In this document: in pieces, positions 1,389 through 53,462 of the stretch | Position numbering within the stretch: the stretch's first letter is position 1 | Layout of the letters: the number at the start of each line of letters is the position of its first letter | NCBI RefSeq assembly: GCF_002854065.1 | Contig: NZ_CP024147.1 | Source: Escherichia coli | Lineage (GTDB): Bacteria; Pseudomonadota; Gammaproteobacteria; Enterobacterales; Enterobacteriaceae | DNA length: 64,000 nucleotides | Strand: one strand, 5' to 3' | Notes under the pieces: model-generated | Told to the model about the DNA's origin: nothing | Seen by the model: only the letters and a program-made list of their open reading frames with translations | Databases searched by the model: none | Program-made: the position numbers and the translations under genes

Positions 1389-3215
1389 TCAGGCTCCTCG
1401 TGAAACAATAATCACCACCAGTACCGCCAGTTCAACCAGCGCCATCCGGCGGAACAGCAACGCACTCCCCTCGCACTGCCAGCCCGGCACCAGCGACACC
1501 GGATTCAGCCATTTGCGCAGTTTCAGCACCGGCGCAAACGCCTGTTTCACCGGCATGGCAAAACCGTGAGCGGTAATCACCATTGATTTTTCGTGGTCGT
1601 AACCGCACACCCAGGCCGCACCGCGGGAACGCGATGGCAAACGATCGCCTTTGCAAATCGCCATAATGATGAATGGCAGCAGCGGGCAGGCAATCAGCAG
1701 CAACGTGATCATCGGTTGAGAAACGGTGGTGTTAGCAGGCTCCAGCGGCAGAGGTACAGCAGCAGACAGCATCGGCAGCAGCCACGGCGCAGCAACACCG
1801 CCAATTACGCAGCAAATCGCCAGTGCCACTACGCTTACGCTCATCAGGAGCGGCGCACAGGTGGCGTTTTCGGCTTCTTTGGTACGCGGCGCGCCGAGGA
1901 ACGTGACGCCATAGACTTTCGCCATACACATAACCGCCAGCGCACCGGTAATTGCCAGCCCCACAGCGAGCAGCGGCCCCAGCAGACGTGCAACAAACGC
2001 GCCACTATTGCTCAGTTTGAAAAAGGATTGATAGATAACCCATTCCCCGGCAAACCCGTTCAGCGGCGGCAGCGCAGCCATTGCCATCAACCCGACTAAC
2101 ATGGCGATGGAGATAACCGGCATTTTCTTGCCAATACCACCGAGTTTTTCGATATCGCGATGACCGGTACGGAACCAGACGCTCCCCGCCCCGAGGAACA
2201 GTACGCTTTTGAACAGGCTATGGTTAAGCAGATGGTACAGACCACCGACCAGGCCAAGAGCAATCAGCGCCGGTTGTTCGAGCGCGATACCCGTTACGCC
2301 AGCGCCCAGCCCCAGCAGGATAATGCCGATATTTTCCAGGGTGTGGTAAGCCAGTAGACGCTGGATGTTATGCTCCATCAGCGCATACAGACCACCGACG
2401 AACGCGGTGATCATACCGAGCACCAGCAGCGCGATCCCCCACCACAGCGGTGCATTACCACCCAGCAGCGACAGGGTTAAAATGCCCAGCAGGCCAATTT
2501 TCATGACTACCGTAGAAAACAACGCGGCAGCTGGCGCAGAGGCGTTCGCATGTGCCTGCGGCACCCAGCCGTGCAGCGGAATAATCCCGGCCAGCAGGCC
2601 AAAGCCAATCACACCGAGCAGCCAGATATCGGAACCGAGCGGCAGCTGTTGCATACGCATATCCAGCAGGCGCAGATCCAGCGTGCCGTAACGCTGCCAC
2701 AGCAGCCAGCAAGCAATCGCCAGCAGCAGAGTGCCAAGACGCCCCAGCGCAAACCACAGTTTGCCCTCTTTGCTGTTGTTGGTGAGGAACACCGCACACA
2801 AGGCCATGACTTCAGCCATTACCACGAACATGCCGAGGTTGCTGGCGATGACGGCGCAGACGGCGGCAGCCATCAACATATTGATCTGCAAGCCGTTGCA
2901 CTTCACCTGCGCGTGGCGATGCCAGTCAATGTTGTAGAGGCTGACAAACAGACCGCACAGACCGAGCGTAATCAGCCAAATCGCGTTAAGCGGAGAGATT
3001 TGCACATCGTAGCTTACCAGCGACAGCGCACCGCTCACGCCAACCGCGCCAGTCAGTACTGTGAAGCCCGCTGCTGCCGTATACAGACTACCAACCGCGC
3101 CGCCAATTCCGGCTATCCAGCCGCTTAGCGCCTTTTGAAAAGAAAAGAGAAATGCCAGAACAGCGGCGGCGACAAACCACGCCACGCCGCTATTGATCAG
3201 GGAAATTGCGCTCAT
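1389..3215 (-). CDS. hycC: Formate hydrogenlyase membrane subunit HycC (NuoL/MnhA-like)
   Basis: 608-aa ORF, antiporter-like membrane protein, operon context. Confidence 0.9.
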   Translation of the reverse strand: MSAISLINSGVAWFVAAAVLAFLFSFQKALSGWIAGIGGAVGSLYTAAAGFTVLTGAVGVSGALSLVSYDVQISPLNAIWLITLGLCGLFVSLYNIDWHRHAQVKCNGLQINMLMAAAVCAVIASNLGMFVVMAEVMALCAVFLTNNSKEGKLWFALGRLGTLLLAIACWLLWQRYGTLDLRLLDMRMQQLPLGSDIWLLGVIGFGLLAGIIPLHGWVPQAHANASAPAAALFSTVVMKIGLLGILTLSLLGGNAPLWWGIALLVLGMITAFVGGLYALMEHNIQRLLAYHTLENIGIILLGLGAGVTGIALEQPALIALGLVGGLYHLLNHSLFKSVLFLGAGSVWFRTGHRDIEKLGGIGKKMPVISIAMLVGLMAMAALPPLNGFAGEWVIYQSFFKLSNSGAFVARLLGPLLAVGLAITGALAVMCMAKVYGVTFLGAPRTKEAENATCAPLLMSVSVVALAICCVIGGVAAPWLLPMLSAAVPLPLEPANTTVSQPMITLLLIACPLLPFIIMAICKGDRLPSRSRGAAWVCGYDHEKSMVITAHGFAMPVKQAFAPVLKLRKWLNPVSLVPGWQCEGSALLFRRMALVELAVLVVIIVSRGA

Positions 3216-3823
3216 TTAGCCTCTCCACTTTGAGCCTGCTGAAACAAGGTGAGATCGCCAAAGTCCGTGTTAAAGGTCAGCTCACGCTTACGTTTGCTGA
3301 CGCGGGCGATATCGGTGTTATCCACCAGATGCAGGGCTTTAGTCGGGCACATCCGCACGCAGGCCGGACCTTGTTCATCAAAGCTACAAAGGTCACATTT
3401 GACGGCGATCGCGCGAATACCTGGCACCCAGTCAAGCAATGTGCTGACACGCGCCGGAGCAGGCGGTGCCGGTGGCGCTTTCGGGGTATTGGCGTTTGCC
3501 GGAATATCCAGCGGACGGCTGCCGGAAAATTCGATTGCGCCAAACGGGCAGGCGATGCCGCACAGTTTGCAGCTTACGCACAGACTTTCATTCAACTGCA
3601 CGGCCCCATCAACGCGGGTGATGGCGTTAACCGGGCAGACCACCGCGCAGGGTGCATCTTCACAGTGGTGACAGAGCTGCGGCGCAGATTCTTTTTCATT
3701 GAGCATCACTCTCAGGCGCGGCATTGATTGCAGGCCGTGCTGGCGATGCGTCTCTGAACAGGCGGCCTCACAAGTGTGGCAACCGATACAGAGCGTGGAG
3801 TCAGCAATTACAAAACGATTCAC
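3212..3823 (-). CDS. hycB: Formate hydrogenlyase 4Fe-4S ferredoxin-type subunit HycB
   Basis: 203-aa ORF with multiple CxxCxxCxxxCP motifs; overlaps hycC start. Confidence 0.9.
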   Translation of the reverse strand: MNRFVIADSTLCIGCHTCEAACSETHRQHGLQSMPRLRVMLNEKESAPQLCHHCEDAPCAVVCPVNAITRVDGAVQLNESLCVSCKLCGIACPFGAIEFSGSRPLDIPANANTPKAPPAPPAPARVSTLLDWVPGIRAIAVKCDLCSFDEQGPACVRMCPTKALHLVDNTDIARVSKRKRELTFNTDFGDLTLFQQAQSGEAK

Positions 3824-3871
3824 CAGGCATTCCTCAGGTGATTGTCATTTTTGACGAAAACATGCCGATGA

Positions 3872-3900
3872 AATGTCATTTTCGACACTCATCGACACGC
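3872..3900. promoter_or_regulatory. Repeated TCGACA motifs, candidate FhlA upstream activating sequence
   Basis: gtcattttcgacactcatcgacacg seen in hycB-hycA spacer; resembles motif at 4512-4550. Confidence 0.3.
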
Positions 3901-3947
3901 CCATCCCCAAACAGGCGTAACGCCTGCAAAACGGGCAAAGCCTCAGC

Positions 3948-4409
3948 TCATGCTGCCGGGCTTTGTCCCTTTACCAGTTGGCTTAAATTCACCGGCACAT
4001 TGTTTTCAATGGCGGTGTATAAGCTGTCGTAAACGCCAGCGATTTTTTCGAGATAGTGTTCCAGAACCTGTTCGCGATCGCGGATGTTGACCTTGCCATC
4101 AATCATGCCGTCAATGCTCAGTTGCGCCTGCGCAATCCGCTGTTTGTCTTCGCCATCTTTTGTTTCGACGTAATACTCGATGGTGTGGCTGTTAAAGCCA
4201 TCCGCCAGGGTGACGTAAATACGAAAATGTTCAAAAAGGACGAAACAGAGTTCTTTGTCCGGCGCGCAGCTCATGGCGTGATGCAGGCGCGCTTTCGATA
4301 ACGTGATCCCCTGAACCAGCGAATTGCAGTAGATGTGCCACTGGTCCTGTAGGCGACGATGCCGCTGTGCGATGTAATCGGCTTTCTCGCTTATTTCCCA
4401 AATAGTCAT
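3948..4409 (-). CDS. hycA: Formate hydrogenlyase regulatory protein HycA
   Basis: 153-aa ORF, first gene of hyc operon, divergent from hypA. Confidence 0.9.
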   Translation of the reverse strand: MTIWEISEKADYIAQRHRRLQDQWHIYCNSLVQGITLSKARLHHAMSCAPDKELCFVLFEHFRIYVTLADGFNSHTIEYYVETKDGEDKQRIAQAQLSIDGMIDGKVNIRDREQVLEHYLEKIAGVYDSLYTAIENNVPVNLSQLVKGQSPAA

Positions 4410-4445
4410 TGTCAGGTTACCCGTTTAACAGAGATGCCAGCTTTA

Positions 4446-4461
4446 AGCATTTTTTGTGCCA
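4446..4461 (-). promoter_or_regulatory. Candidate sigma54 promoter (-24 TGGCAC / -12 TGC) for hyc operon
   Basis: Minus strand reads TGGCACAAAAAATGCT upstream of hycA. Confidence 0.45.
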
Positions 4462-4511
4462 ACTTTTAATTTATTGTTATTAAAGCGATTTTTAAGATTT
4501 TGGTGAATTTC

Positions 4512-4550
4512 GTCGCCGTGTCGACGTGTCATTTCGACATCATCGACATT
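4512..4550. promoter_or_regulatory. Candidate FhlA upstream activating sequence, palindromic TGTCGA repeats
   Basis: gtgtcgacgtgtcatttcgacatcatcgaca between divergent sigma54 promoters. Confidence 0.4.
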
Positions 4551-4574
4551 ATTCACTGCAGGGATAATCAACAC

Positions 4575-4590
4575 TGGCACAATTATTGCT
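4575..4590 (+). promoter_or_regulatory. Candidate sigma54 promoter (TGGCAC-N5-TTGCT) for hyp operon
   Basis: TGGCACAATTATTGCT, about 30 nt upstream of hypA start. Confidence 0.5.
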
Positions 4591-4620
4591 TGTAGCTGGC
4601 AATAGTTAATGGGAGGCGAT

Positions 4621-4971
4621 ATGCACGAAATAACCCTCTGCCAACGGGCACTGGAATTGATCGAACAGCAGGCCGCAAAACACGGCGCAAAACGCGTAAC
4701 TGGGGTCTGGCTCAAAATTGGCGCATTTTCTTGTGTCGAAACCAGCTCTCTTGCCTTTTGTTTTGATCTGGTTTGCCGCGGCAGCGTGGCGGAAGGTTGT
4801 AAACTGCACCTCGAAGAACAAGAGGCCGAATGCTGGTGTGAAACATGCCAACAGTATGTGACGCTACTGACCCAGCGCGTCCGCCGCTGTCCACAGTGTC
4901 ATGGTGACATGCTACAGATTGTGGCAGACGACGGTTTACAGATTCGGCGGATAGAAATAGACCAGGAGTGA
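4621..4971 (+). CDS. hypA: Hydrogenase nickel incorporation protein HypA
   Basis: Starts MHEITLCQRALELIEQ, GGGAGG RBS, CxxC zinc motifs; 116 aa. Confidence 0.9.
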   Translation: MHEITLCQRALELIEQQAAKHGAKRVTGVWLKIGAFSCVETSSLAFCFDLVCRGSVAEGCKLHLEEQEAECWCETCQQYVTLLTQRVRRCPQCHGDMLQIVADDGLQIRRIEIDQE

Positions 4972-4974
4972 GCG

Positions 4975-5847
4975 ATGTGTACAACATGCGGTTGCGGTGA
5001 AGGCAACCTGTATATCGAGGGTGATGAACATAACCCTCATTCCGCGTTTCGTAGCGCGCCATTTGCCCCGGCGGCACGCCCGAAGATGAAAATCACCGGC
5101 ATTAAAGCGCCTGAATTTATCCCCAGCCAGACTGAAGAAGGCGACCTGCATTACGGTCATGGCGAAGCGGGCACTCACGCACCGGGCATGAGCCAGCGCC
5201 GGATGCTGGAAGTCGAAATTGACGTGCTGGACAAAAACAACCGTCTGGCTGAACGCAACCGCGCGCGCTTTGCTGCCCGCAAGCAACTGGTGCTCAACCT
5301 GGTTTCCAGCCCTGGTTCCGGTAAAACCACCCTGCTGACGGAAACCTTAATGCGCCTGAAAGACAGTGTTCCGTGCGCGGTTATTGAAGGTGACCAGCAA
5401 ACCGTGAACGATGCCGCACGCATTCGCGCTACCGGCACACCAGCGATTCAGGTGAATACCGGTAAAGGCTGCCATCTTGACGCACAGATGATTGCTGACG
5501 CCGCACCGCGCCTGCCACTGGACGATAACGGTATTCTGTTTATCGAAAACGTTGGCAACCTCGTATGCCCGGCGAGCTTCGATCTCGGTGAAAAACACAA
5601 AGTGGCGGTGCTTTCCGTTACCGAAGGTGAAGACAAACCGCTGAAATATCCGCATATGTTTGCCGCCGCCTCGCTGATGCTGCTCAACAAAGTTGACCTG
5701 TTGCCGTATCTCAACTTTGACGTTGAGAAGTGCATCGCCTGCGCCCGCGAAGTCAATCCAGAAATTGAAATCATCCTTATTTCCGCCACCAGCGGCGAAG
5801 GGATGGACCAGTGGCTGAACTGGCTGGAGACACAGCGATGTGCATAG
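4975..5847 (+). CDS. hypB: Hydrogenase maturation GTPase/nickel-binding protein HypB
   Basis: 290-aa ORF with N-terminal CxxCGC metal site and GSGKTT P-loop. Confidence 0.9.
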
Positions 5848-21190: not shown

Positions 21191-22618
21191 TTATTTACGT
21201 GCAGCCAGCATAGCGGTCAGTTTTTCAGCCCAGGCTTTGGTTTCCGGCAAATCCACCACCGGCTGGCTGTAGTGACCACGGTTGTCCGGGGCGACAGGCG
21301 TGGTGGCGTCGATAATCAGCTTGTCGGTGATCCCCGCCGGGCTTGAGCCAGGGTCGAGTTCCAGCACGGACATATTCGGCAACTGCACCAAATCCCCTGC
21401 CGGGTTCACTTTCGAGGAGAGCGCCCACATCACCTGCGGCAGGTTGAACGGATCAACGTCTTCATCGACCATAATCACCATCTTCACGTAGCCCAGACCG
21501 TGCGGCGTGGTCATCGCGCGCAGGCCCACCGCGCGGGCAAAGCCGCCGTAGCGTTTTTTGGTGGAGATAATCGCCAGCAGGCCGTGGGTGTACATGGCGT
21601 TTACCGCCTGCACTTCCGGGAACTCGGCTTTCAGTTGTTGATATAGCGGTACGCAGGTGGCTGGCCCCATCAGGTAGTCGATTTCGGTCCACGGCATGCC
21701 GAGGTACAGCGATTCGAAAATCGGCCTGGTGCGGTAAGAGACTTTATCGATGCGCACCACGGTCATGTTACGCCCGCCGGAGTAGTGTCCGGTAAACTCA
21801 CCGAACGGCCCTTCGATTTCGCGTTTACGGCTTTCGATGACCCCTTCGAGGATCGCTTCTGAACCCCACGGCACATCAAAACCGGTCAGCGGGGCGGTGG
21901 CGATCGGGTACGAGCTTTCACGCAGCGCGCCTGCCATTTCATACTCAGACTGATCGTATTTCAGCGGCGTGGCCCCCATCAGCGTGATGATCGGATCGTT
22001 ACCGAGCGTGATCGCAATCGGCAGATCTTCACCGCGCTCTTCTGCTTTATGCAGATGCAGGGCGATATCGTGCATCGGCACCGGTTGCAGGCCGAGCTTA
22101 CGCTTGCCCTTCACTTCCATGCGGTAGATGCCGACGTTCTGCTTGCCGAAGTTATCCGGGTCGAGCGGATCGCGGGAAACCACGCACGCTTTGTCGAGAT
22201 AGAAACCGCCATCACCGTCGTTTAAACGAAACAGCGGCAGGATATCGAACAGATTAATCTCGTCACCATCGACGGTGTTCTGCGCCCAGGCTGGATTGGC
22301 GCGGCGCTCCGGGGCAATCGGGAAGTTATCCCAGCGGCGGATAAACTCATCAATCTGTTTTTTAACCGGGGTGTTTGGCGGCAGGCCCAAGGAAATCGCG
22401 TGGTTCTGCCAGGAACCGATGGTATTCATCGCCACGCGGGCATCGGTAAAACCGCGAATATTATCAAACCACAGCGCCGGTGCACCATCGCCGATACGCC
22501 CGGTGGCGTTGGCAGCGGCAGCCAGATCCGGTTCCGCGTTCACCTCTTCGCTGATTTTCAGTAACTGGCCGTGGTCATCAAGCGCCTGTAAAAAGCTGCG
22601 TAAATCATCAAATGCCAT
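21191..22618 (-). CDS. ecdC: UbiD-family phenolic acid decarboxylase subunit C
   Basis: 475-aa ORF, UbiD-family decarboxylase. Confidence 0.85.
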   Translation of the reverse strand: MAFDDLRSFLQALDDHGQLLKISEEVNAEPDLAAAANATGRIGDGAPALWFDNIRGFTDARVAMNTIGSWQNHAISLGLPPNTPVKKQIDEFIRRWDNFPIAPERRANPAWAQNTVDGDEINLFDILPLFRLNDGDGGFYLDKACVVSRDPLDPDNFGKQNVGIYRMEVKGKRKLGLQPVPMHDIALHLHKAEERGEDLPIAITLGNDPIITLMGATPLKYDQSEYEMAGALRESSYPIATAPLTGFDVPWGSEAILEGVIESRKREIEGPFGEFTGHYSGGRNMTVVRIDKVSYRTRPIFESLYLGMPWTEIDYLMGPATCVPLYQQLKAEFPEVQAVNAMYTHGLLAIISTKKRYGGFARAVGLRAMTTPHGLGYVKMVIMVDEDVDPFNLPQVMWALSSKVNPAGDLVQLPNMSVLELDPGSSPAGITDKLIIDATTPVAPDNRGHYSQPVVDLPETKAWAEKLTAMLAARK

Positions 22619-23211
22619 TATTCATTCTCCTGAGAAAAATTCCGGGCCTGCGGCAATCCTTGCCAGCGCCTGGCGTAGGGATGTTCAAGGCCAAATTGAT
22701 CCAGCACGCGGGCTACCACGTGGTGGACAATGTCATCTACCGTTTCGGGATGGTTATAAAAGGCAGGCATCGGCGGCACCATCGCCACGCCCATGCGTGA
22801 AAGTGCGAGCATATTTTCGAGATGGATGGTGTTAAGCGGCATTTCACGCGGCACCAGTACCAGTTTGCGGCCTTCTTTGAGCACGACGTCCGCCGCGCGC
22901 CCTACCAGGCCATCGGCGTAACCAGCGCGGATACCGGCGAGCGTTTTCATACTGCACGGAATAACGATCATGCCGTCGGTACGAAAGGAACCTGAGGAGA
23001 TGGTCGCCGCCTGATCCGCCGGGTTATGGCTGAAGTCAGCGAGGGCAGCAACATCGCGGGCGCTGTAAGGCGTTTCCAGTTCAATGGTGGTTTTCGCCCA
23101 CTTCGACATCACCAGATGAGTCTCGATATTCGGCATCTCCTGCAGCGCTTGCAGTAATGCCACACCAAGAGGCGCACCGGTAGCCCCTGTCATCCCGACG
23201 ATCAGTTTCAT
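22618..23211 (-). CDS. ecdB: UbiX-like flavin prenyltransferase, decarboxylase subunit B
   Basis: 197-aa ORF starting MKLIVGMTGATGA, flavoprotein fold; overlaps ecdC start. Confidence 0.85.
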   Translation of the reverse strand: MKLIVGMTGATGAPLGVALLQALQEMPNIETHLVMSKWAKTTIELETPYSARDVAALADFSHNPADQAATISSGSFRTDGMIVIPCSMKTLAGIRAGYADGLVGRAADVVLKEGRKLVLVPREMPLNTIHLENMLALSRMGVAMVPPMPAFYNHPETVDDIVHHVVARVLDQFGLEHPYARRWQGLPQARNFSQENE

Positions 23212-23324
23212 TGCTTACTCTCTTAATTGTTCGTATACGAACGTTATTATTAAAATACGCCTCTGTTCTCATTGCGGCAAGCACTGAAAAGTAACAACAT
23301 CCCCTTCGTCACTGAAAAACCGCT

Positions 23325-23765
23325 ATGATAGCGGCAGATAGTTTGCCCGGAGTTTACATGGCGTTACGAAATAAAGCGTTCCATCAGTTACGACAGCTTT
23401 TTCAGCAGCACACATCTCGCTGGCAGCACGAGTTACCTGACCTGACCAAACCACAGTATGCGGTGATGCGTGCCATTGCTGATAAGCCTGGTATCGAACA
23501 GGTGGCACTGATAGAAGCAGCAGTCAGCACCAAAGCAACGCTGGCAGAAATGTTGGCAAGAATGGAAAATCGTGGCTTAGTCAGACGTGAACATGACGCC
23601 GCTGATAAGCGGCGACGCTTTGTCTGGCTGACTGCCGAAGGAGAAAAGATACTTGCTGCGGCGATACCGATTGGTGACAGCGTGGATGAGGAATTTTTGG
23701 GGCGTTTGAGTGCAGAAGAGCAGGAGCTGTTTATGCAGCTGGTGCGCAAGATGATGAACACATAG
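23325..23765 (+). CDS. MarR/SlyA-family transcriptional regulator, divergent from ecdBCD
   Basis: 146-aa ORF with winged-helix MarR signature. Confidence 0.75.
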   Translation: MIAADSLPGVYMALRNKAFHQLRQLFQQHTSRWQHELPDLTKPQYAVMRAIADKPGIEQVALIEAAVSTKATLAEMLARMENRGLVRREHDAADKRRRFVWLTAEGEKILAAAIPIGDSVDEEFLGRLSAEEQELFMQLVRKMMNT

Positions 23766-23837
23766 GATGCAAATTGCCGGGTAGGACGCTGACGTGTCTT
23801 ATCCAGGCGACAAAAACACATGCTTCCCAAACAAAAG

Positions 23838-23872
23838 AAAAAAGGCCAGCCTCGCTTGAGACTGGCCTTTCT
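23838..23872 (-). terminator. rpoS intrinsic terminator
   Basis: Minus strand: GGCCAGTCTCAAGCGAGGCTGGCC hairpin followed by TTTTTTCTTTTG. Confidence 0.5.
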
Positions 23873-23885
23873 GACAGATGCTTAC

Positions 23886-24878
23886 TTATTCGCGGAACAG
23901 CGCTTCGATATTCAGCCCCTGCGTTTGCAGGATTTCGCGCAAACGGCGCAGGCCTTCAACCTGAATCTGGCGAACACGTTCACGGGTGAGGCCAATTTCA
24001 CGACCTACATCTTCCAGTGTTGCCGCTTCGTACCCAAGCAAACCGAATCGACGTGCCAGCACTTCACGCTGTTTGGCGTTCAGTTCGAACAGCCATTTGA
24101 CGATGCTCTGCTTCATATCGTCATCTTGCGTGGTATCTTCCGGACCGTTCTCTTTTTCATCGGCCAGGATGTCCAGCAACGCTTTTTCGGAATCACCACC
24201 CAGCGGGGTGTCTACCGAGGTAATGCGCTCGTTAAGACGAAGCATACGGCTGACGTCATCAACTGGCTTATCCAGTTGCTCTGCGATCTCTTCCGCACTT
24301 GGTTCATGGTCCAGCTTATGGGACAACTCACGTGCGGTTCGCAGGTAAACGTTCAGCTCCTTTACGATGTGAATCGGCAAACGAATAGTACGGGTTTGGT
24401 TCATAATCGCCCGTTCAATCGTCTGGCGAATCCACCAGGTTGCGTATGTTGAGAAGCGGAAACCACGTTCCGGGTCAAACTTCTCTACCGCGCGGATCAG
24501 CCCCAGGTTGCCCTCTTCGATAAGGTCCAGCAACGCCAGACCACGATTGCCATAACGGCGGGCAATTTTTACCACCAGACGCAAGTTACTCTCGATCATC
24601 CGGCGGCGAGAGGCGACATCTCCACGCAGTGCGCGACGCGCAAAATAAACTTCTTCTTCGGCCGTTAACAGTGGTGAATAACCAATCTCACCAAGGTAAA
24701 GCTGAGTCGCGTCCAACACACGCTGTGTGGCTCCCTGCGATAACAGTTCCTCTTCGGCCAAATCGTTATCACTGGGTTCCTCTTCTACTAAGGCCTTTTC
24801 GTCAAAAACCTCAACTCCGTTCTCATCAAATTCCGCATCTTCATTTAAATCATGAACTTTCAGCGTATTCTGACTCAT
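23886..24878 (-). CDS. rpoS: RNA polymerase sigma factor RpoS (sigma38), full length
   Basis: Start at [17 protein letters not shown] inside longer ORF; 330 aa; codon 33 is GAG, no internal stop. Confidence 0.95.
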
Positions 24879-33907: not shown

Positions 33908-34945
33908 ATGTTTTCCGCATTGCGCCACCGTACCGCTGCCCTGGCGCTCGGCGTATGCTTTATTCTCCCCGTACACGCCTCGTCACCTAAACCTGGCGAT
34001 TTTGCTAATACCCAGGCACGACATATTGCTACTTTCTTTCCGGGACGCATGACCGGAACTCCTGCAGAAATGTTATCTGCCGATTATATTCGCCAACAGT
34101 TTCAGCAAATGGGTTATCGCAGTGATATTCGGACATTTAATAGTCGGTATATTTATACCGCCCGCGATAATCGCAAGAGCTGGCATAACGTGACGGGAAG
34201 TACGGTGATTGCCGCTCATGAAGGCAAAGCGCCGCAGCAGATCATCATTATGGCGCATCTGGATACTTACGCCCCGCTGAGCGATGCTGACGCCGATGCC
34301 AATCTCGGCGGGCTGACGTTACAAGGAATGGATGATAACGCCGCAGGTTTAGGTGTCATGCTGGAATTGGCAGAACGCCTGAAAAATACGCCTACCGAGT
34401 ATGGTATTCGATTTGTGGCGACCAGCGGCGAAGAGGAAGGGAAATTAGGCGCTGAGAATTTACTCAAGCGGATGAGTGACACCGAAAAGAAAAATACGCT
34501 GCTGGTGATTAATCTCGATAACTTAATTGTTGGCGATAAATTGTATTTCAACAGCGGTGTAAAAACCCCTGAAGCAGTAAGGAAATTAACGCGCGACAGG
34601 GCGCTGGCAATTGCGCGTAGTCATGGAATTGCCGCAACGACCAATCCGGGTTTGAATAAAAATTATCCGAAAGGCACTGGGTGTTGTAATGACGCAGAAA
34701 TATTCGACAAAGCGGGCATTGCTGTACTTTCGGTGGAAGCGACTAACTGGAATCTTGGGAATAAGGATGGTTATCAGCAACGCGCAAAAACAGCCGCATT
34801 CCCTGCGGGAAATAGCTGGCATGACGTAAGACTGGATAATCAACAGCATATTGATAAGGCACTTCCAGGAAGAATAGAACGTCGCTGCCGTGACGTTATG
34901 CGGATAATGCTACCACTGGTGAAGGAGCTGGCGAAGGCGTCTTGA
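33908..34945 (+). CDS. iap: Alkaline phosphatase isozyme conversion aminopeptidase
   Basis: 345-aa ORF with signal peptide and M28 peptidase features. Confidence 0.85.
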   Translation: MFSALRHRTAALALGVCFILPVHASSPKPGDFANTQARHIATFFPGRMTGTPAEMLSADYIRQQFQQMGYRSDIRTFNSRYIYTARDNRKSWHNVTGSTVIAAHEGKAPQQIIIMAHLDTYAPLSDADADANLGGLTLQGMDDNAAGLGVMLELAERLKNTPTEYGIRFVATSGEEEGKLGAENLLKRMSDTEKKNTLLVINLDNLIVGDKLYFNSGVKTPEAVRKLTRDRALAIARSHGIAATTNPGLNKNYPKGTGCCNDAEIFDKAGIAVLSVEATNWNLGNKDGYQQRAKTAAFPAGNSWHDVRLDNQQHIDKALPGRIERRCRDVMRIMLPLVKELAKAS

Positions 34946-35070
34946 TGGGTTTGAAATGATGACTCCCGTGCCTGCAGGAAATCAATGCCACCTGAAACAG
35001 AGAATAAAAAAGGGTGCAGGAGGCCAAACCATCACAATTCAATACGCGGGGTTTTACCCCCGCGTGGTGG

Positions 35071-35223
35071 CTACTTCTTCGATTCGTAAGCGAGAACTGC
35101 CTTAAACTCCATACCACGCTCTCTGATACTCAACTCACATAACGAGTCGCCTACCATGAGCGTGAATCCCAGTACTGTACAACACAGTACTATGATTGCC
35201 ACAAGGGCATATTTTGTTAGCAT
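35071..35223 (-). CDS. Hok-family type I toxin (hokX-like), intact 50-aa ORF
   Basis: [50 protein letters not shown]: TM helix plus conserved SLCEL...LAYES C-terminus; GGGAGG SD 6 nt upstream. Confidence 0.75.
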
Positions 35224-35430
35224 GTCTTGCCTCCCTGCAAAGAAGAGACTAACATCCGAATTGCTACGTTCGAACGCGAGCCTCAGGTTGATAGAAATAT
35301 CGCCTGGGGCTTTTGTCCATCTGGAACCTCGCGAATGCTTAACGCCAGACAGCCTCAAGCACCCGACGCCATTCTATACCTGATAATTCTTCCAGCGGCG
35401 TTCACGTTTAAAATCAGGAATGCTGCTCGC

Positions 35431-35470
35431 AAAATAAAAACGCCCCCATCATTTCTGACAGAGGCGTTTA
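35431..35470 (-). terminator. Likely cysJIH operon terminator
   Basis: Minus strand hairpin (aacgcctc...gggggcgtt) followed by TTTTTATTTT just downstream of cysH stop. Confidence 0.4.
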
Positions 35471-35486
35471 ATTTATCCGGCAATAT

Positions 35487-36221
35487 TTACCCTTCGTGTA
35501 ACCCACATTCCCTTTTTAAGCCAAAGAAACGCGTTTCTTCTTCCGCCATGCCGGGTTCCCATTTACGGGTTGTATGGGTATCGCCCACCGATAAATATCC
35601 TTCGTCCCATAATGGGTGATATTTCAGGCCATGTTTTTGCAGGTACTGATAAATAGTTCGGTTATCCCAGTCGATAATCGGCAGCACTTTAAATACGCCA
35701 CGCTGAATTGCCAGCACCGGTAAATTGGCGCGGCTGCCGGATTGTTCACGGCGCAGGCCAGCAAACCAGGTTTGCGCATTCAGTTCTTTTAGCGCCCGGT
35801 TCATCGGTTCGACTTTGTTGATGTCATTGTACTTTTCAATGCCTTCAACGCCCTGTTCCCACAGTTTTCCGTAGCGTGCTTCCTGCCAGGCTGCGCTTTC
35901 GGTAGCACGGTACACTTTCAGGTTGAGCTTGAGTTTGTCCGTTAACTCGTCAATAAAGCGGTAGGTTTCCGGGAACAAGTAACCGGTATCGGTGAGGATC
36001 ACTGGAATATCCGGGCGAATCTGATTCACCAGATGCAGGCTCACCGCCGCCTGAATGCCGAAGCTGGAAGAAAGCACATATTCACCGGGCAGATTATCCA
36101 GCGCCCAGGCTACGCGGCCTTCAGCGTCCAGTTTTTCCAGTTGGGCGTTAGTTTCCGCCAGCGCCAGAATGCGATCTACCTTCGGCAGTTCGTTCAGGGC
36201 GTTTAGATCGAGTTTGGACAT
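35487..36221 (-). CDS. cysH: Phosphoadenosine phosphosulfate reductase
   Basis: Start at [12 protein letters not shown] inside longer ORF; 244 aa; C-terminal ECGLH motif. Confidence 0.9.
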
Positions 36222-49803: not shown

Positions 49804-51282
49804 ATGTCGAAGAAATACATCATAGGGATTGATGGCGGAAGTCAGAGCACAAAAGTGGTGATGTACGATCTGGAAGGTAACGTGGTTTGCGAAGGCAAAG
49901 GTTTATTGCAGCCGATGCACACGCCAGATGCCGATACCGCAGAACATCCTGACGACGATTTATGGGCATCATTATGTTTTGCCGGTCACGATTTGATGAG
50001 TCAGTTTGCCGGGAATAAAGAAGATATTGTCGGTATTGGTCTGGGATCCATCCGTTGCTGCCGTGCGTTATTGAAAGCCGATGGCACGCCTGCTGCGCCG
50101 TTGATTAGCTGGCAGGATGCACGCGTAACGCGTCCCTACGAACACACTAATCCTGACGTGGCCTATGTCACCTCTTTTTCGGGTTATCTGACGCATCGCT
50201 TAACCGGCGAGTTTAAAGACAATATCGCCAACTATTTTGGTCAGTGGCCGGTGGATTATAAGACCTGGGCATGGAGTGAAGATGCTGCGGTAATGGATAA
50301 GTTTAATATCCCCCGTCATATGCTGTTTGATGTGCAAATGCCTGGCACCGTCCTCGGACATATCACACCACAAGCCGCACTGGCGACACATTTCCCGGCA
50401 GGACTGCCGGTTGTTTGTACCACCAGTGATAAACCGGTAGAAGCTCTGGGGGCCGGATTACTGGATGATGAAACGGCGGTAATTTCTCTTGGCACCTACA
50501 TCGCGCTGATGATGAACGGCAAAGCACTGCCGAAAGATCCGGTGGCGTACTGGCCGATTATGTCTTCTATTCCGCAAACATTGCTGTATGAAGGTTACGG
50601 TATCCGTAAAGGCATGTGGACGGTGAGCTGGCTGCGCGACATGCTAGGCGAGTCGTTAATTCAGGATGCCAGGGCGCAGGATCTTTCACCGGAAGATTTA
50701 CTCAACAAAAAAGCTTCTTGTGTGCCGCCAGACTGTAATGGTCTGATGACGGTGCTGGACTGGCTGACCAATCCGTGGGAACCGTACAAACGCGGGATTA
50801 TGATCGGCTTTGATTCCAGCATGGATTACGCATGGATATATCGTTCGATACTGGAAAGCGTGGCGCTGACGCTGAAGAACAATTACGACAATATGTGTAA
50901 TGAAATGAATCACTTTGCGAAGCATGTGATCATTACTGGCGGCGGTTCGAACAGCGATCTGTTTATGCAGATTTTTGCCGACGTGTTCAACCTTCCGGCA
51001 CGACGTAACGCCATTAACGGTTGTGCAAGTCTGGGGGCAGCGATTAATACCGCGGTAGGTCTGGGGCTATACCCGGATTACGCAACGGCTGTCGATAAAA
51101 TGGTTCGCGTGAAAGATATCTTTATACCGATTGAGAGCAATGCCAAACGCTACGACGCGATGAATAAAGGCATTTTCAAAGACCTAACCAAACATACTGA
51201 TGTGATTCTGAAAAAATCGTATGAAGTGATGCATGGGGAATTGGGAAATGCGGATTCGATCCAGAGCTGGTCGAATGCGTAA
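49804..51282 (+). CDS. ygcE: FGGY-family carbohydrate kinase
   Basis: 492-aa ORF starting MSKKYIIGIDGGSQSTK. Confidence 0.85.
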   Translation: MSKKYIIGIDGGSQSTKVVMYDLEGNVVCEGKGLLQPMHTPDADTAEHPDDDLWASLCFAGHDLMSQFAGNKEDIVGIGLGSIRCCRALLKADGTPAAPLISWQDARVTRPYEHTNPDVAYVTSFSGYLTHRLTGEFKDNIANYFGQWPVDYKTWAWSEDAAVMDKFNIPRHMLFDVQMPGTVLGHITPQAALATHFPAGLPVVCTTSDKPVEALGAGLLDDETAVISLGTYIALMMNGKALPKDPVAYWPIMSSIPQTLLYEGYGIRKGMWTVSWLRDMLGESLIQDARAQDLSPEDLLNKKASCVPPDCNGLMTVLDWLTNPWEPYKRGIMIGFDSSMDYAWIYRSILESVALTLKNNYDNMCNEMNHFAKHVIITGGGSNSDLFMQIFADVFNLPARRNAINGCASLGAAINTAVGLGLYPDYATAVDKMVRVKDIFIPIESNAKRYDAMNKGIFKDLTKHTDVILKKSYEVMHGELGNADSIQSWSNA

Positions 51283-51329
51283 GTGAGGAAGGCCGGGCGG
51301 GAAACAGCACGGCCTGAACATACCTGAAT

Positions 51330-51500
51330 GGTTATCCCCGCTGACGCGGGGAACTCTCTAAACATAACCTATTATTAATTAATGATTTTTTAAGCCAGTC
51401 ACAATCTACCAACTTTACAGTATCACACAAACAACACATCCATCATGTTAAAGAGCACTTAACCCATTGATTAAAAAGGTAAATATTTAAAATAACTCTA
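51330..51500 (-). CDS. placeholder
   Basis: placeholder. Confidence 0.
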
Positions 51501-51694
51501 TACAAACTAAAATCTACCAAACTTTACCGCAATAATTTTCACTCCAGCGAAAAATTAACGCCACAGAATTTGTAGAGAATGATAATGATTAGTTCAGGAT
51601 GGGCAAAATGGAGGTTTTTCAGAGACGACAAAGAATATAAATGAGTAGAAGTCTTTACAGGTTCCACCCATTTATAACGCTTATAAATGTTTAA

Positions 51695-52366
51695 TCAGGC
51701 AATATTTAAATATTTATGGGTTTGCATCGACAAACGCCAATTACGCGCAATGCAGGTTTCAATGCACAAACGTGTGGCATCATCCTTTTGGCTAATCGGC
51801 TGCAGTGCAATGACTCGCGGTTTATCATCGGTCAGCGTCGCCAAAAGTTCATCCAGTGCTTCAATATCACGTACGCGTCCCACTGGATGCTTGATTTCGT
51901 TGGCTCGCTCCAGTGCCTGTGACAACACTTCATAGCCGCCGCGCATGTTCAGCTTTGGCGATACGGTAACCCAGGTATTCGGTGTACAGCGTACTTCATG
52001 AGTACCACTGGTTTCGATCTGGCAGCTAAAACCGTTCTTTTCGAGCAGGTCAGTCAGTGGTAGCAAATCATGAATGCAAGGCTCACCACCCGTAATCACC
52101 ACATGCCGCGCGGTGTATCCCTGGCGACCAATGACAGCCAGCAAGTCTTCACTGCTCGCCGCCCCCCACTTATCACTCTCTTTGGTCTTCGCCAGAATGC
52201 TGAAAAGGGAGACTTCCCGATCCTCAAGCTTTTCCCAGGTGTGTTTGGTGTCGCACCAGGCACAGCCAACCGGGCATCCCTGTAAACGAATAAAAATGGC
52301 GGGGACGCCGGTAAAGTAACCCTCACCTTGCAGGGTCTGGAACATCTCGTTAATCGGGTACTGCAT
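51695..52366 (-). CDS. queE: 7-carboxy-7-deazaguanine synthase (radical SAM)
   Basis: 223-aa ORF with CxxxCxxC-type radical-SAM cysteine cluster. Confidence 0.9.
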   Translation of the reverse strand: MQYPINEMFQTLQGEGYFTGVPAIFIRLQGCPVGCAWCDTKHTWEKLEDREVSLFSILAKTKESDKWGAASSEDLLAVIGRQGYTARHVVITGGEPCIHDLLPLTDLLEKNGFSCQIETSGTHEVRCTPNTWVTVSPKLNMRGGYEVLSQALERANEIKHPVGRVRDIEALDELLATLTDDKPRVIALQPISQKDDATRLCIETCIARNWRLSMQTHKYLNIA

Positions 52367-52692: not shown

Positions 52693-52747
52693 GGTGATGC
52701 TGCCAACTTACTGATTTAGTGTATGATGGTGTTTTTGAGGTGCTCCA

Positions 52748-53023
52748 GTGGCTTCTGTTTCTATCAGCTGTCCCTCCTGTTCAGCTACTGACGGGGTGGT
52801 GCGTAACGGCAAAAGCACTGCCGGACATCAGCGCTATCTCTGCTCTCACTGCCGTAAAACATGGCAACTGCAGTTCACTTACACCGCTTCTCAACCCGGT
52901 ACGCACCAGAAAATCATTGATATGGCCATGAATGGCGTTGGATGCCGGGCAACCGCCCGCATTATGGGCGTTGGCCTCAACACGATTTTCCGCCATTTAA
53001 AAAACTCAGGCCGCAGTCGGTAA
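52748..53023 (+). CDS. insA: IS1 InsA
   Basis: 91 aa [21 protein letters not shown]..., GTG start. Confidence 0.9.
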
Positions 53024-53445
53024 CCTCGCGCATACAGCCGGGCAGTGACGTCATCGTCTGCGCGGAAATGGACGAACAGTGGGGATACGTCGGGGCTAAA
53101 TCGCGCCAGCGCTGGCTGTTTTACGCGTATGACAGGCTCCGGAAGACGGTTGTTGCGCACGTATTCGGTGAACGCACTATGGCGACGCTGGGGCGTCTTA
53201 TGAGCCTGCTGTCACCCTTTGACGTGGTGATATGGATGACGGATGGCTGGCCGCTGTATGAATCCCGCCTGAAGGGAAAGCTGCACGTAATCAGCAAGCG
53301 ATATACGCAGCGAATTGAGCGGCATAACCTGAATCTGAGGCAGCACCTGGCACGGCTGGGACGGAAGTCGCTGTCGTTCTCAAAATCGGTGGAGCTGCAT
53401 GACAAAGTCATCGGGCATTATCTGAACATAAAACACTATCAATAA
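52942..53445 (+). CDS. insB: IS1 InsB (transposase C-terminal part, expressed as InsAB' by -1 frameshift)
   Basis: 167-aa ORF in -1 frame relative to insA, recognised IS1 InsB. Confidence 0.85.
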
Positions 53446-53462
53446 GTTGGAGTCATTACCTG

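Follow-up and report, generated by a model that had tools for sequence, protein, structure and literature searches.

How does a CRISPR locus come to consist of a leader and one repeat, with no spacer at all? This question is raised by a stretch of Escherichia coli DNA of 64,000 nucleotides, which will be called the window from here on. In the interval from 51283 to 51694, between the genes ygcE and queE, the window holds one repeat-like sequence, a leader known as leader2.3, and zero spacers. The flanks and the leader agree with ygcE, queE and the CRISPR annotated in K-12, and in thousands of other genomes, which identifies the interval as E. coli CRISPR-II, the site of CRISPR2.2 and CRISPR2.3.

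The usual parts of this locus are well described. CRISPR2.2 has three repeats and two invariable spacers, CRISPR2.3 adjoins the leader, and 0.5 kb lies between the two. There is also a merged form, called CRISPR2.2-3 (PMC3903273, PMC4489801).

Comparison with other strains makes it very probable that CRISPR-II is found here in its most reduced state. The lineage would have lost its cas genes, after which a deletion from repeat to repeat would have removed the array, leaving a relic made up of a hybrid repeat and an intact leader.

One repeat beside a leader

On the left, the interval is bounded by ygcE (49804 to 51282, plus strand), the gene for an FGGY-family carbohydrate kinase, which has its TAA stop at 51280 to 51282. 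On the right is queE, also called ygcF (51695 to 52366, minus strand), with its stop at 51695. The encoded QueE has no amino-acid differences from that of K-12. Both genes are open reading frames in the window, and they were named after their RefSeq counterparts in strain 100416, a genome with 99.95% identity to the window across some 30 kb.

After ygcE there is a GC-rich hairpin (ggccgggc...gcacggcc, 51291 to 51314, plus strand; fold −16.6 kcal/mol, z −3.0). This is likely the stem of the ygcE terminator, and the terminator scan called no T-run terminator after it. Other strains have an 8-bp GC stem here (ggccgggc/gcccggcc), of which one pair is lost through a C to A change at 51309. The window has this change in common with 100416, and it is absent in XJ34, TB06052, GDSC2227PM, O157 and K-12.

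Within ygcE, nine clustered substitutions are found at 50091 to 50732, compared to XJ34, TB06052 and GDSC2227PM alike, amid kilobases that hardly differ at all. A short tract brought in by recombination would look like this. Downstream of queE, a complete IS1 of 768 bp (52693 to 53460), with both terminal inverted repeats exact, sits in a gene of the LemA family. Its right end adjoins a deletion of 1,928 bp relative to 100416 (22279 to 24206 of the region extracted from that strain). The deletion took what remained of the LemA-family gene, along with part of the TPM-domain (ygcG-like) genes, and looks like an IS1-adjacent one.

The repeat was originally predicted, from the sequence by itself, at 51330 to 51356 on the plus strand. 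The 27-mer GGTTATCCCCGCTGACGCGGGGAACTC is indeed there, directly followed by tctaaacataacctattattaattaatgattttttaagccag. The 64 kb window has just this one copy, and matches were found in none of 100 shuffles that preserve dinucleotides. Compared to the full 29-nt consensus the repeat covers 51329 to 51356, and in the leader-to-array orientation, which is the minus strand, it reads GAGTTCCCCGCGTCAGCGGGGATAACCA. The original prediction gave two differences from the consensus, a deleted T and a G to A change. Both of these stand, but the count does not, since there is a third difference, a T for C at 51329. With these three edits, 26 of the 29 consensus positions are retained.

The 7-bp stem of the repeat is intact, and its predicted minimum free energy of −15.1 kcal/mol is equal to that of the consensus. 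The G to A change (C to U on the transcribed strand) sits in the tetraloop. This is a repeat of the type 2 / I-E family, with the conserved stem-loop.

An array has at least two repeats and spacers of around 32 nt. No further repeats or spacers were found here by any of the searches, as had been predicted. The 29-nt type I-E consensus has no match in the 64 kb window with up to three mismatches. A pattern for the stem-loop core finds the solo repeat, plus one match with three mismatches at 4771, which is within chance expectation for the window. The relaxed search that had been proposed for 51283 to 51694, done by edit distance (up to 9 edits of 27), delivers one repeat and no second, and a repeat search found no CRISPR-like spaced direct repeats. 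An Rfam scan of the whole window at the gathering threshold reports only sok, and no CRISPR-DR family for the lone repeat. From 51200 to 51800, with E values up to 10 allowed, it reports just a chance-level STnc420 (E 5.6). Since neither the interval nor the 64 kb window as a whole yielded a second repeat, this is the remnant of an array, and not an array.

The AT-rich stretch beside the repeat had been recognised as an E. coli CRISPR leader, and alignment to K-12 shows that it is specifically leader2.3. It abuts the repeat and extends over 338 bases on the minus strand, from 51357 to 51694, up to the queE stop. The first 60 nt on the array side (51357 to 51416) are all identical to K-12 leader2.3 (60/60), and over the whole leader this holds for 332 of 345 positions, or 96.2%. 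With K-12 leader2.1, which belongs to the iap array next to cas2, just 62 of 110 positions agree. The published elements of the leader are an IHF site at −9 to −35 and an upstream Cas1-Cas2 contact at −50 to −55 (PMC10011333). These positions correspond to 51365 to 51391 and 51406 to 51411, both within the block that is identical to K-12.

The leader also holds two copies of AATCTACCAA(A)CTTTAC, at 51403 to 51419 and 51511 to 51528, 108 nt apart. The first copy overlaps the published upstream contact. The pair was considered as a set of extra degenerate repeats, and rejected: K-12 has both copies, and the edit-distance scan found nothing repeat-like there. Finally, just downstream of the queE stop there is a 15-nt inverted repeat (51636 to 51676, 87% complementary, 11-nt loop), followed by a T-rich run on the minus strand. 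This is possibly the terminator of queE, located inside the so-called leader; no terminator was called here by the consensus scan.

A hybrid of two repeats

The original prediction was that the locus had been reduced to its leader plus one degenerate repeat. The reduction is borne out, but the repeat is not a decayed array repeat. This becomes clear from ten genomes aligned side by side: the window, 100416, XJ34, TB06052, GDSC2227PM, O157:H7 TR01, K-12, EC-1639, MP1 and UTI89. All ten have a trailer repeat, TGGTTATCCCCGCTGACGCGGGGAAC, exactly 46 nt past the ygcE stop, and all ten have identical variants in it (C to T, the missing T, and G to A). Because K-12 is among these genomes, the missing T and the G to A change do not represent decay after the loss of the array. 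Judged from this alignment, the variant repeat is the fixed, oldest repeat of CRISPR-II, the one at its trailer end.

What comes after the trailer repeat is not the same everywhere. The next two bases are AT in K-12, O157:H7, TB06052, GDSC2227PM and EC-1639. In the window they are TC (51355 to 51356), with the leader directly after them, and TC plus leader is the end of the leader-proximal repeat in O157:H7, TB06052, EC-1639, MP1 and UTI89. The stretch from 51329 to 51345 carries the trailer-repeat variants, up to and including a trailer-specific A at 51345. From 51346 to 51354 there is CGCGGGGAAC, which trailer and leader-proximal repeats have in common, and this microhomology is the putative crossover zone of a deletion. 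With trailer variants on the ygcE side and the leader-proximal TC on the leader side, the solo repeat is thus a hybrid. It has the markers of two parental repeats, and relatives have longer alleles, by 61 to 899 bp.

These longer alleles come in several sizes. MP1 and UTI89 have 61 bases more than the window, which is one spacer and one repeat, and among the matches listed S88 and APEC O1 are like them, with 61 bp more and one spacer. EC-1639 has 122 bases more, O157:H7 TR01 and GDSC2227PM have 655, TB06052 has 716 and K-12 has 899. As aligned, these alleles are a graded series of deletions from repeat to repeat, all of them anchored at the trailer repeat, with the window as the end-point. In the CRISPR2.3 of O157:H7 TR01 (1006 to 1100 of the extracted locus), the 32-nt spacer CTGCGGTGATTTCCTGGAATGTTTTGCCGGAC occurs twice in succession. 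GDSC2227PM has a single copy of it, with one substitution.

The proposed history starts with a lineage that would have lost its type I-E cas operon and the CRISPR2.1 array, both at iap-cysH. A deletion would then have occurred between the degenerate trailer repeat on the ygcE side and the leader-proximal repeat on the leader2.3 side, with the crossover within CGCGGGGAAC. This would have removed the remaining CRISPR2.2 repeats, the inter-array segment of roughly 0.46 kb, and all repeats and spacers of CRISPR2.3, for a total of 655 to 716 bp relative to the nearest relatives. The product would be a single hybrid repeat abutting an intact leader. Probably the mechanism was replication slippage or short-homology recombination. 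Yosef et al. (2012) noted that spacers are probably deleted by recombination or polymerase slippage between repeats, and that this could in theory leave one repeat (PMC3384332). We infer the deletion from the comparison of strains, be it in one step or in several.

It is possible, if rather doubtful, that the collapse went through a specific intermediate. This would have been a merged CRISPR2.2-3 with the trailer repeat, one or two spacers and the leader, which then lost another 61 to 122 bp from repeat to repeat. Such intermediates exist at the same site in EC-1639 and in UTI89 and MP1. In the latter two, TC already comes after the trailer repeat, and they are one 61-bp deletion removed from the window allele. 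Their leaders, however, differ from that of the window at 9 to 11 of 344 positions. In addition, the array-bearing genomes that are closest in flanks and leader, among the matches listed, do not have the merged form, but CRISPR2.2, 0.46 kb and CRISPR2.3.

The cas site and the use of what is left

The history preferred here, cas loss followed by a deletion between the trailer and leader-proximal repeats, has its first step at the CRISPR-I site. In K-12, the array and eight cas genes occupy around 9.9 kb between iap and cysH. In the window this site is found at 34946 to 35486, as delineated from the sequence, the Rfam sok match and collinearity with the annotated 100416. The iap stop at 34945 is followed by 125 nt, and then on the minus strand by hok (35071 to 35223), sok (35208 to 35364, Rfam RF01794) and cysH (35487 to 36221). 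Neither cas genes nor the CRISPR2.1 array nor leader2.1 are found between iap and cysH in the window. The cognate operon (cas3, cse1, cse2, cas7, cas5, cas6e, cas1, cas2) is absent from its place, and there is no cas1 or cas2 anywhere within the 64 kb window. A comparison with cas-negative strains had been suggested as a check, and the window itself turns out to be cas-negative at iap-cysH. At 35049 to 35060 it has the 12 bases that are duplicated around an IS421 in 100416, and it does not have the IS421.

The cas-less iap-cysH junction is common: of 5,426 complete E. coli genomes, 1,123 have it in one piece, among them that of ST131 strain JJ1886. Arrangements without cas-E have been described by Almendros et al. 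(PMC3903273), and in a 2025 survey of uropathogenic E. coli (PMC12736100).

Over 5.4 kb around CRISPR-II, the nearest array-bearing genomes among the matches listed are TB06052 (99.3%) and GDSC2227PM (99.0%), and in these two, iap-cysH likewise has no cas genes. In other words, the closest relatives with an array are already without cas genes. This indicates that cas loss would have preceded the collapse of CRISPR-II in this lineage, an order of events that we infer from these relatives.

Since the locus has no spacer, and there is no Cas6e or Cascade at the usual place, it would provide no crRNA and no immunity, and is best seen as a relic. In principle, the site might be re-expanded if type I-E Cas1-Cas2 were re-acquired. 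In BL21-AI, which uses leader2.3 (PMC3737337), a full array was no better as a substrate than a single repeat with a 60-bp leader (PMC3384332). The window has at least 60 bp of native leader beside its one repeat. The leader-side 12 nt of that repeat and its stem are equal to the consensus; the differences are C to U in the loop, plus a 1-nt deletion and an end-base change at the distal end.

It is nevertheless improbable that this is a natural ‘reset’ locus, with a still working integration site, or with a leader that has a cas-independent role. Should the reset reading be true, a strain that regains type I-E cas1-cas2 through horizontal transfer could rebuild an array, in which each new repeat would carry the trailer variants.

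There is equally little chance, if not slightly less, that the site is under selection, as a landing pad for re-acquired Cas1-Cas2 or because of a role for the leader. Such a role could be IHF/H-NS binding, or transcription antisense to ygcE, driven by the leader or reading through from queE. That the array-proximal 60 bases are unchanged from K-12 would fit with this, but the leader as a whole differs at 13 of 345 positions (3.8%), and third codon positions of the flanking genes at 17 of 408 (4.2%). These rates are about equal and give no hint of extra constraint, with numbers that are too small to speak for constraint or decay. The repeat has kept its hairpin and its leader-side half, and one repeat with 60 bp of leader is experimentally sufficient (PMC3384332), yet the cas1 and cas2 needed for a landing pad are absent from the window. 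As to transcription, scanning the interval for promoter and terminator consensus sequences gave 2 promoter-like sites, in line with the 1.9 expected by chance, and 0 terminators.

It has also been found that leader2.3 is generally kept in cas-less strains (PMC3903273). However, ST131-type genomes have sucrose-utilisation genes in its place, apparently without harm. An example is SCAID URN1-2021, which represents the genomes that match our query at the ygcE end only. There, the genes that come after ygcE encode an aminoimidazole riboside kinase and a carbohydrate porin (2765 to 5105 of the extracted locus). After ygcE there is no match to the leader or to the queE end, which means that the trailer repeat and the leader are gone altogether. 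The 2025 survey describes the same sucrose-utilisation layout after ygcE (PMC12736100).

Carriers of the allele and known systems

The frequency of the allele was determined with a query of 90 nt centred on the junction, counting matches in one piece, with up to four mismatches, in 5,426 complete genomes. The zero-spacer allele, which has CGCTGACGCGGGGAACTCTCTAAACATAACC as its junction sequence, is found in one piece in four of these. Strains 100416 (human stool, Gambia) and CUWW06 (wastewater) are 100% identical to the query, and XJ34 and XJ6-3 (both bovine, China) are 98.9% identical. PGAP annotates nothing at the locus in these four genomes. Matches in two pieces, spanning 150 bp, are found among those listed in UTI89, S88, APEC O1, IHE3034 and NU14, which have one spacer more.

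The window itself is distinct from all four. Compared to 100416, the window is without the IS421 and without the 1.9 kb segment next to IS1, and compared to CUWW06 it is without an extra 777 bp. The flanks form a mosaic, with XJ34 differing from the window by about 1% across 30 kb, and phylogenetic polarity therefore rests on local similarity, and not on a genome tree. Even so, from 51196 to 51708 XJ34 has 2 differences, which makes for a shared leader haplotype, where GDSC2227PM, O157 and TB06052 have at least 8. The simplest reading, although not a proven one, would be that the allele has a single origin and was later moved or flanked by recombination.

The same data bear on two further explanations. 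That this is a primordial proto-array that never gained spacers is hardly credible: the absence of spacers fits, but the repeat combines two repeats that can be told apart, the allele (4 of 5,426 genomes) is nested among array-bearing relatives, and the trailer variants are common species-wide. Draft assemblies are prone to collapsing repeat arrays, but collapse of a real array by a short-read assembler is effectively excluded, as the identical junction occurs in complete genomes of unrelated projects (100416, CUWW06, XJ34/XJ6-3), and such a collapse would leave the unique 0.46 kb inter-array segment in place.

Read as a deletion down to one hybrid repeat, the locus would be a clear case from nature of what Yosef et al. 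(2012) foresaw as the final outcome when spacers are lost via repeat recombination. It would likewise be an example of cas loss ahead of array collapse in one E. coli lineage. In practical terms, CRISPR-typing schemes and array finders will score the locus as absent, and the 31-nt junction could be a lineage marker.

Neither CRISPR-II itself nor the deletion mechanism is new, nor is it new that the locus persists in strains without cas genes, and the zero-spacer allele is a rare variant. The locus, the merged array and cas-less configurations are all described in the literature, and no explicit description of a natural zero-spacer allele was found in the papers searched.

Among known systems, CRISPR-II of K-12 MG1655 has the same site, the same trailer repeat 46 nt after ygcE, the same leader and the same repeat family (PMC3903273, PMC4489801). 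K-12 however has three degenerate CRISPR2.2 repeats, a 456-bp inter-array segment, and six CRISPR2.3 repeats with five spacers. The window, shorter by 899 bp, has just the one hybrid repeat and not a single spacer.

The merged CRISPR2.2-3 or minimal arrays of the cas-E-less strains UTI89, S88, APEC O1 and MP1 have likewise lost the inter-array segment and kept the leader. Here too the trailer repeat is joined to array repeats, followed by TC in UTI89 and MP1. These strains have kept at least one spacer and at least two repeats, whereas the window has no spacer. In addition, the leader haplotype of the window is nearer to the O157/GDSC2227PM type than to the UTI89/MP1 type.

Orphan CRISPR4 (type I-F) arrays without cas-F are a similar case of a repeat locus that outlasts its cas genes. 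Their spacers are reported to target cas-F genes, and so to act as an anti-cas device (PMC5972030). The locus in the window has no spacer, so it has no such role.

The final comparison is with an engineered construct, the ‘1-rep’ array made in BL21-AI by Yosef, Goren and Qimron in 2012 (PMC3384332, PMC3737337). That array has a consensus repeat and Cas1-Cas2 supplied from a plasmid, while the repeat in the window has three changes, at the leader-distal end and in the loop. What the two have in common is their layout: leader2.3, and exactly one repeat.
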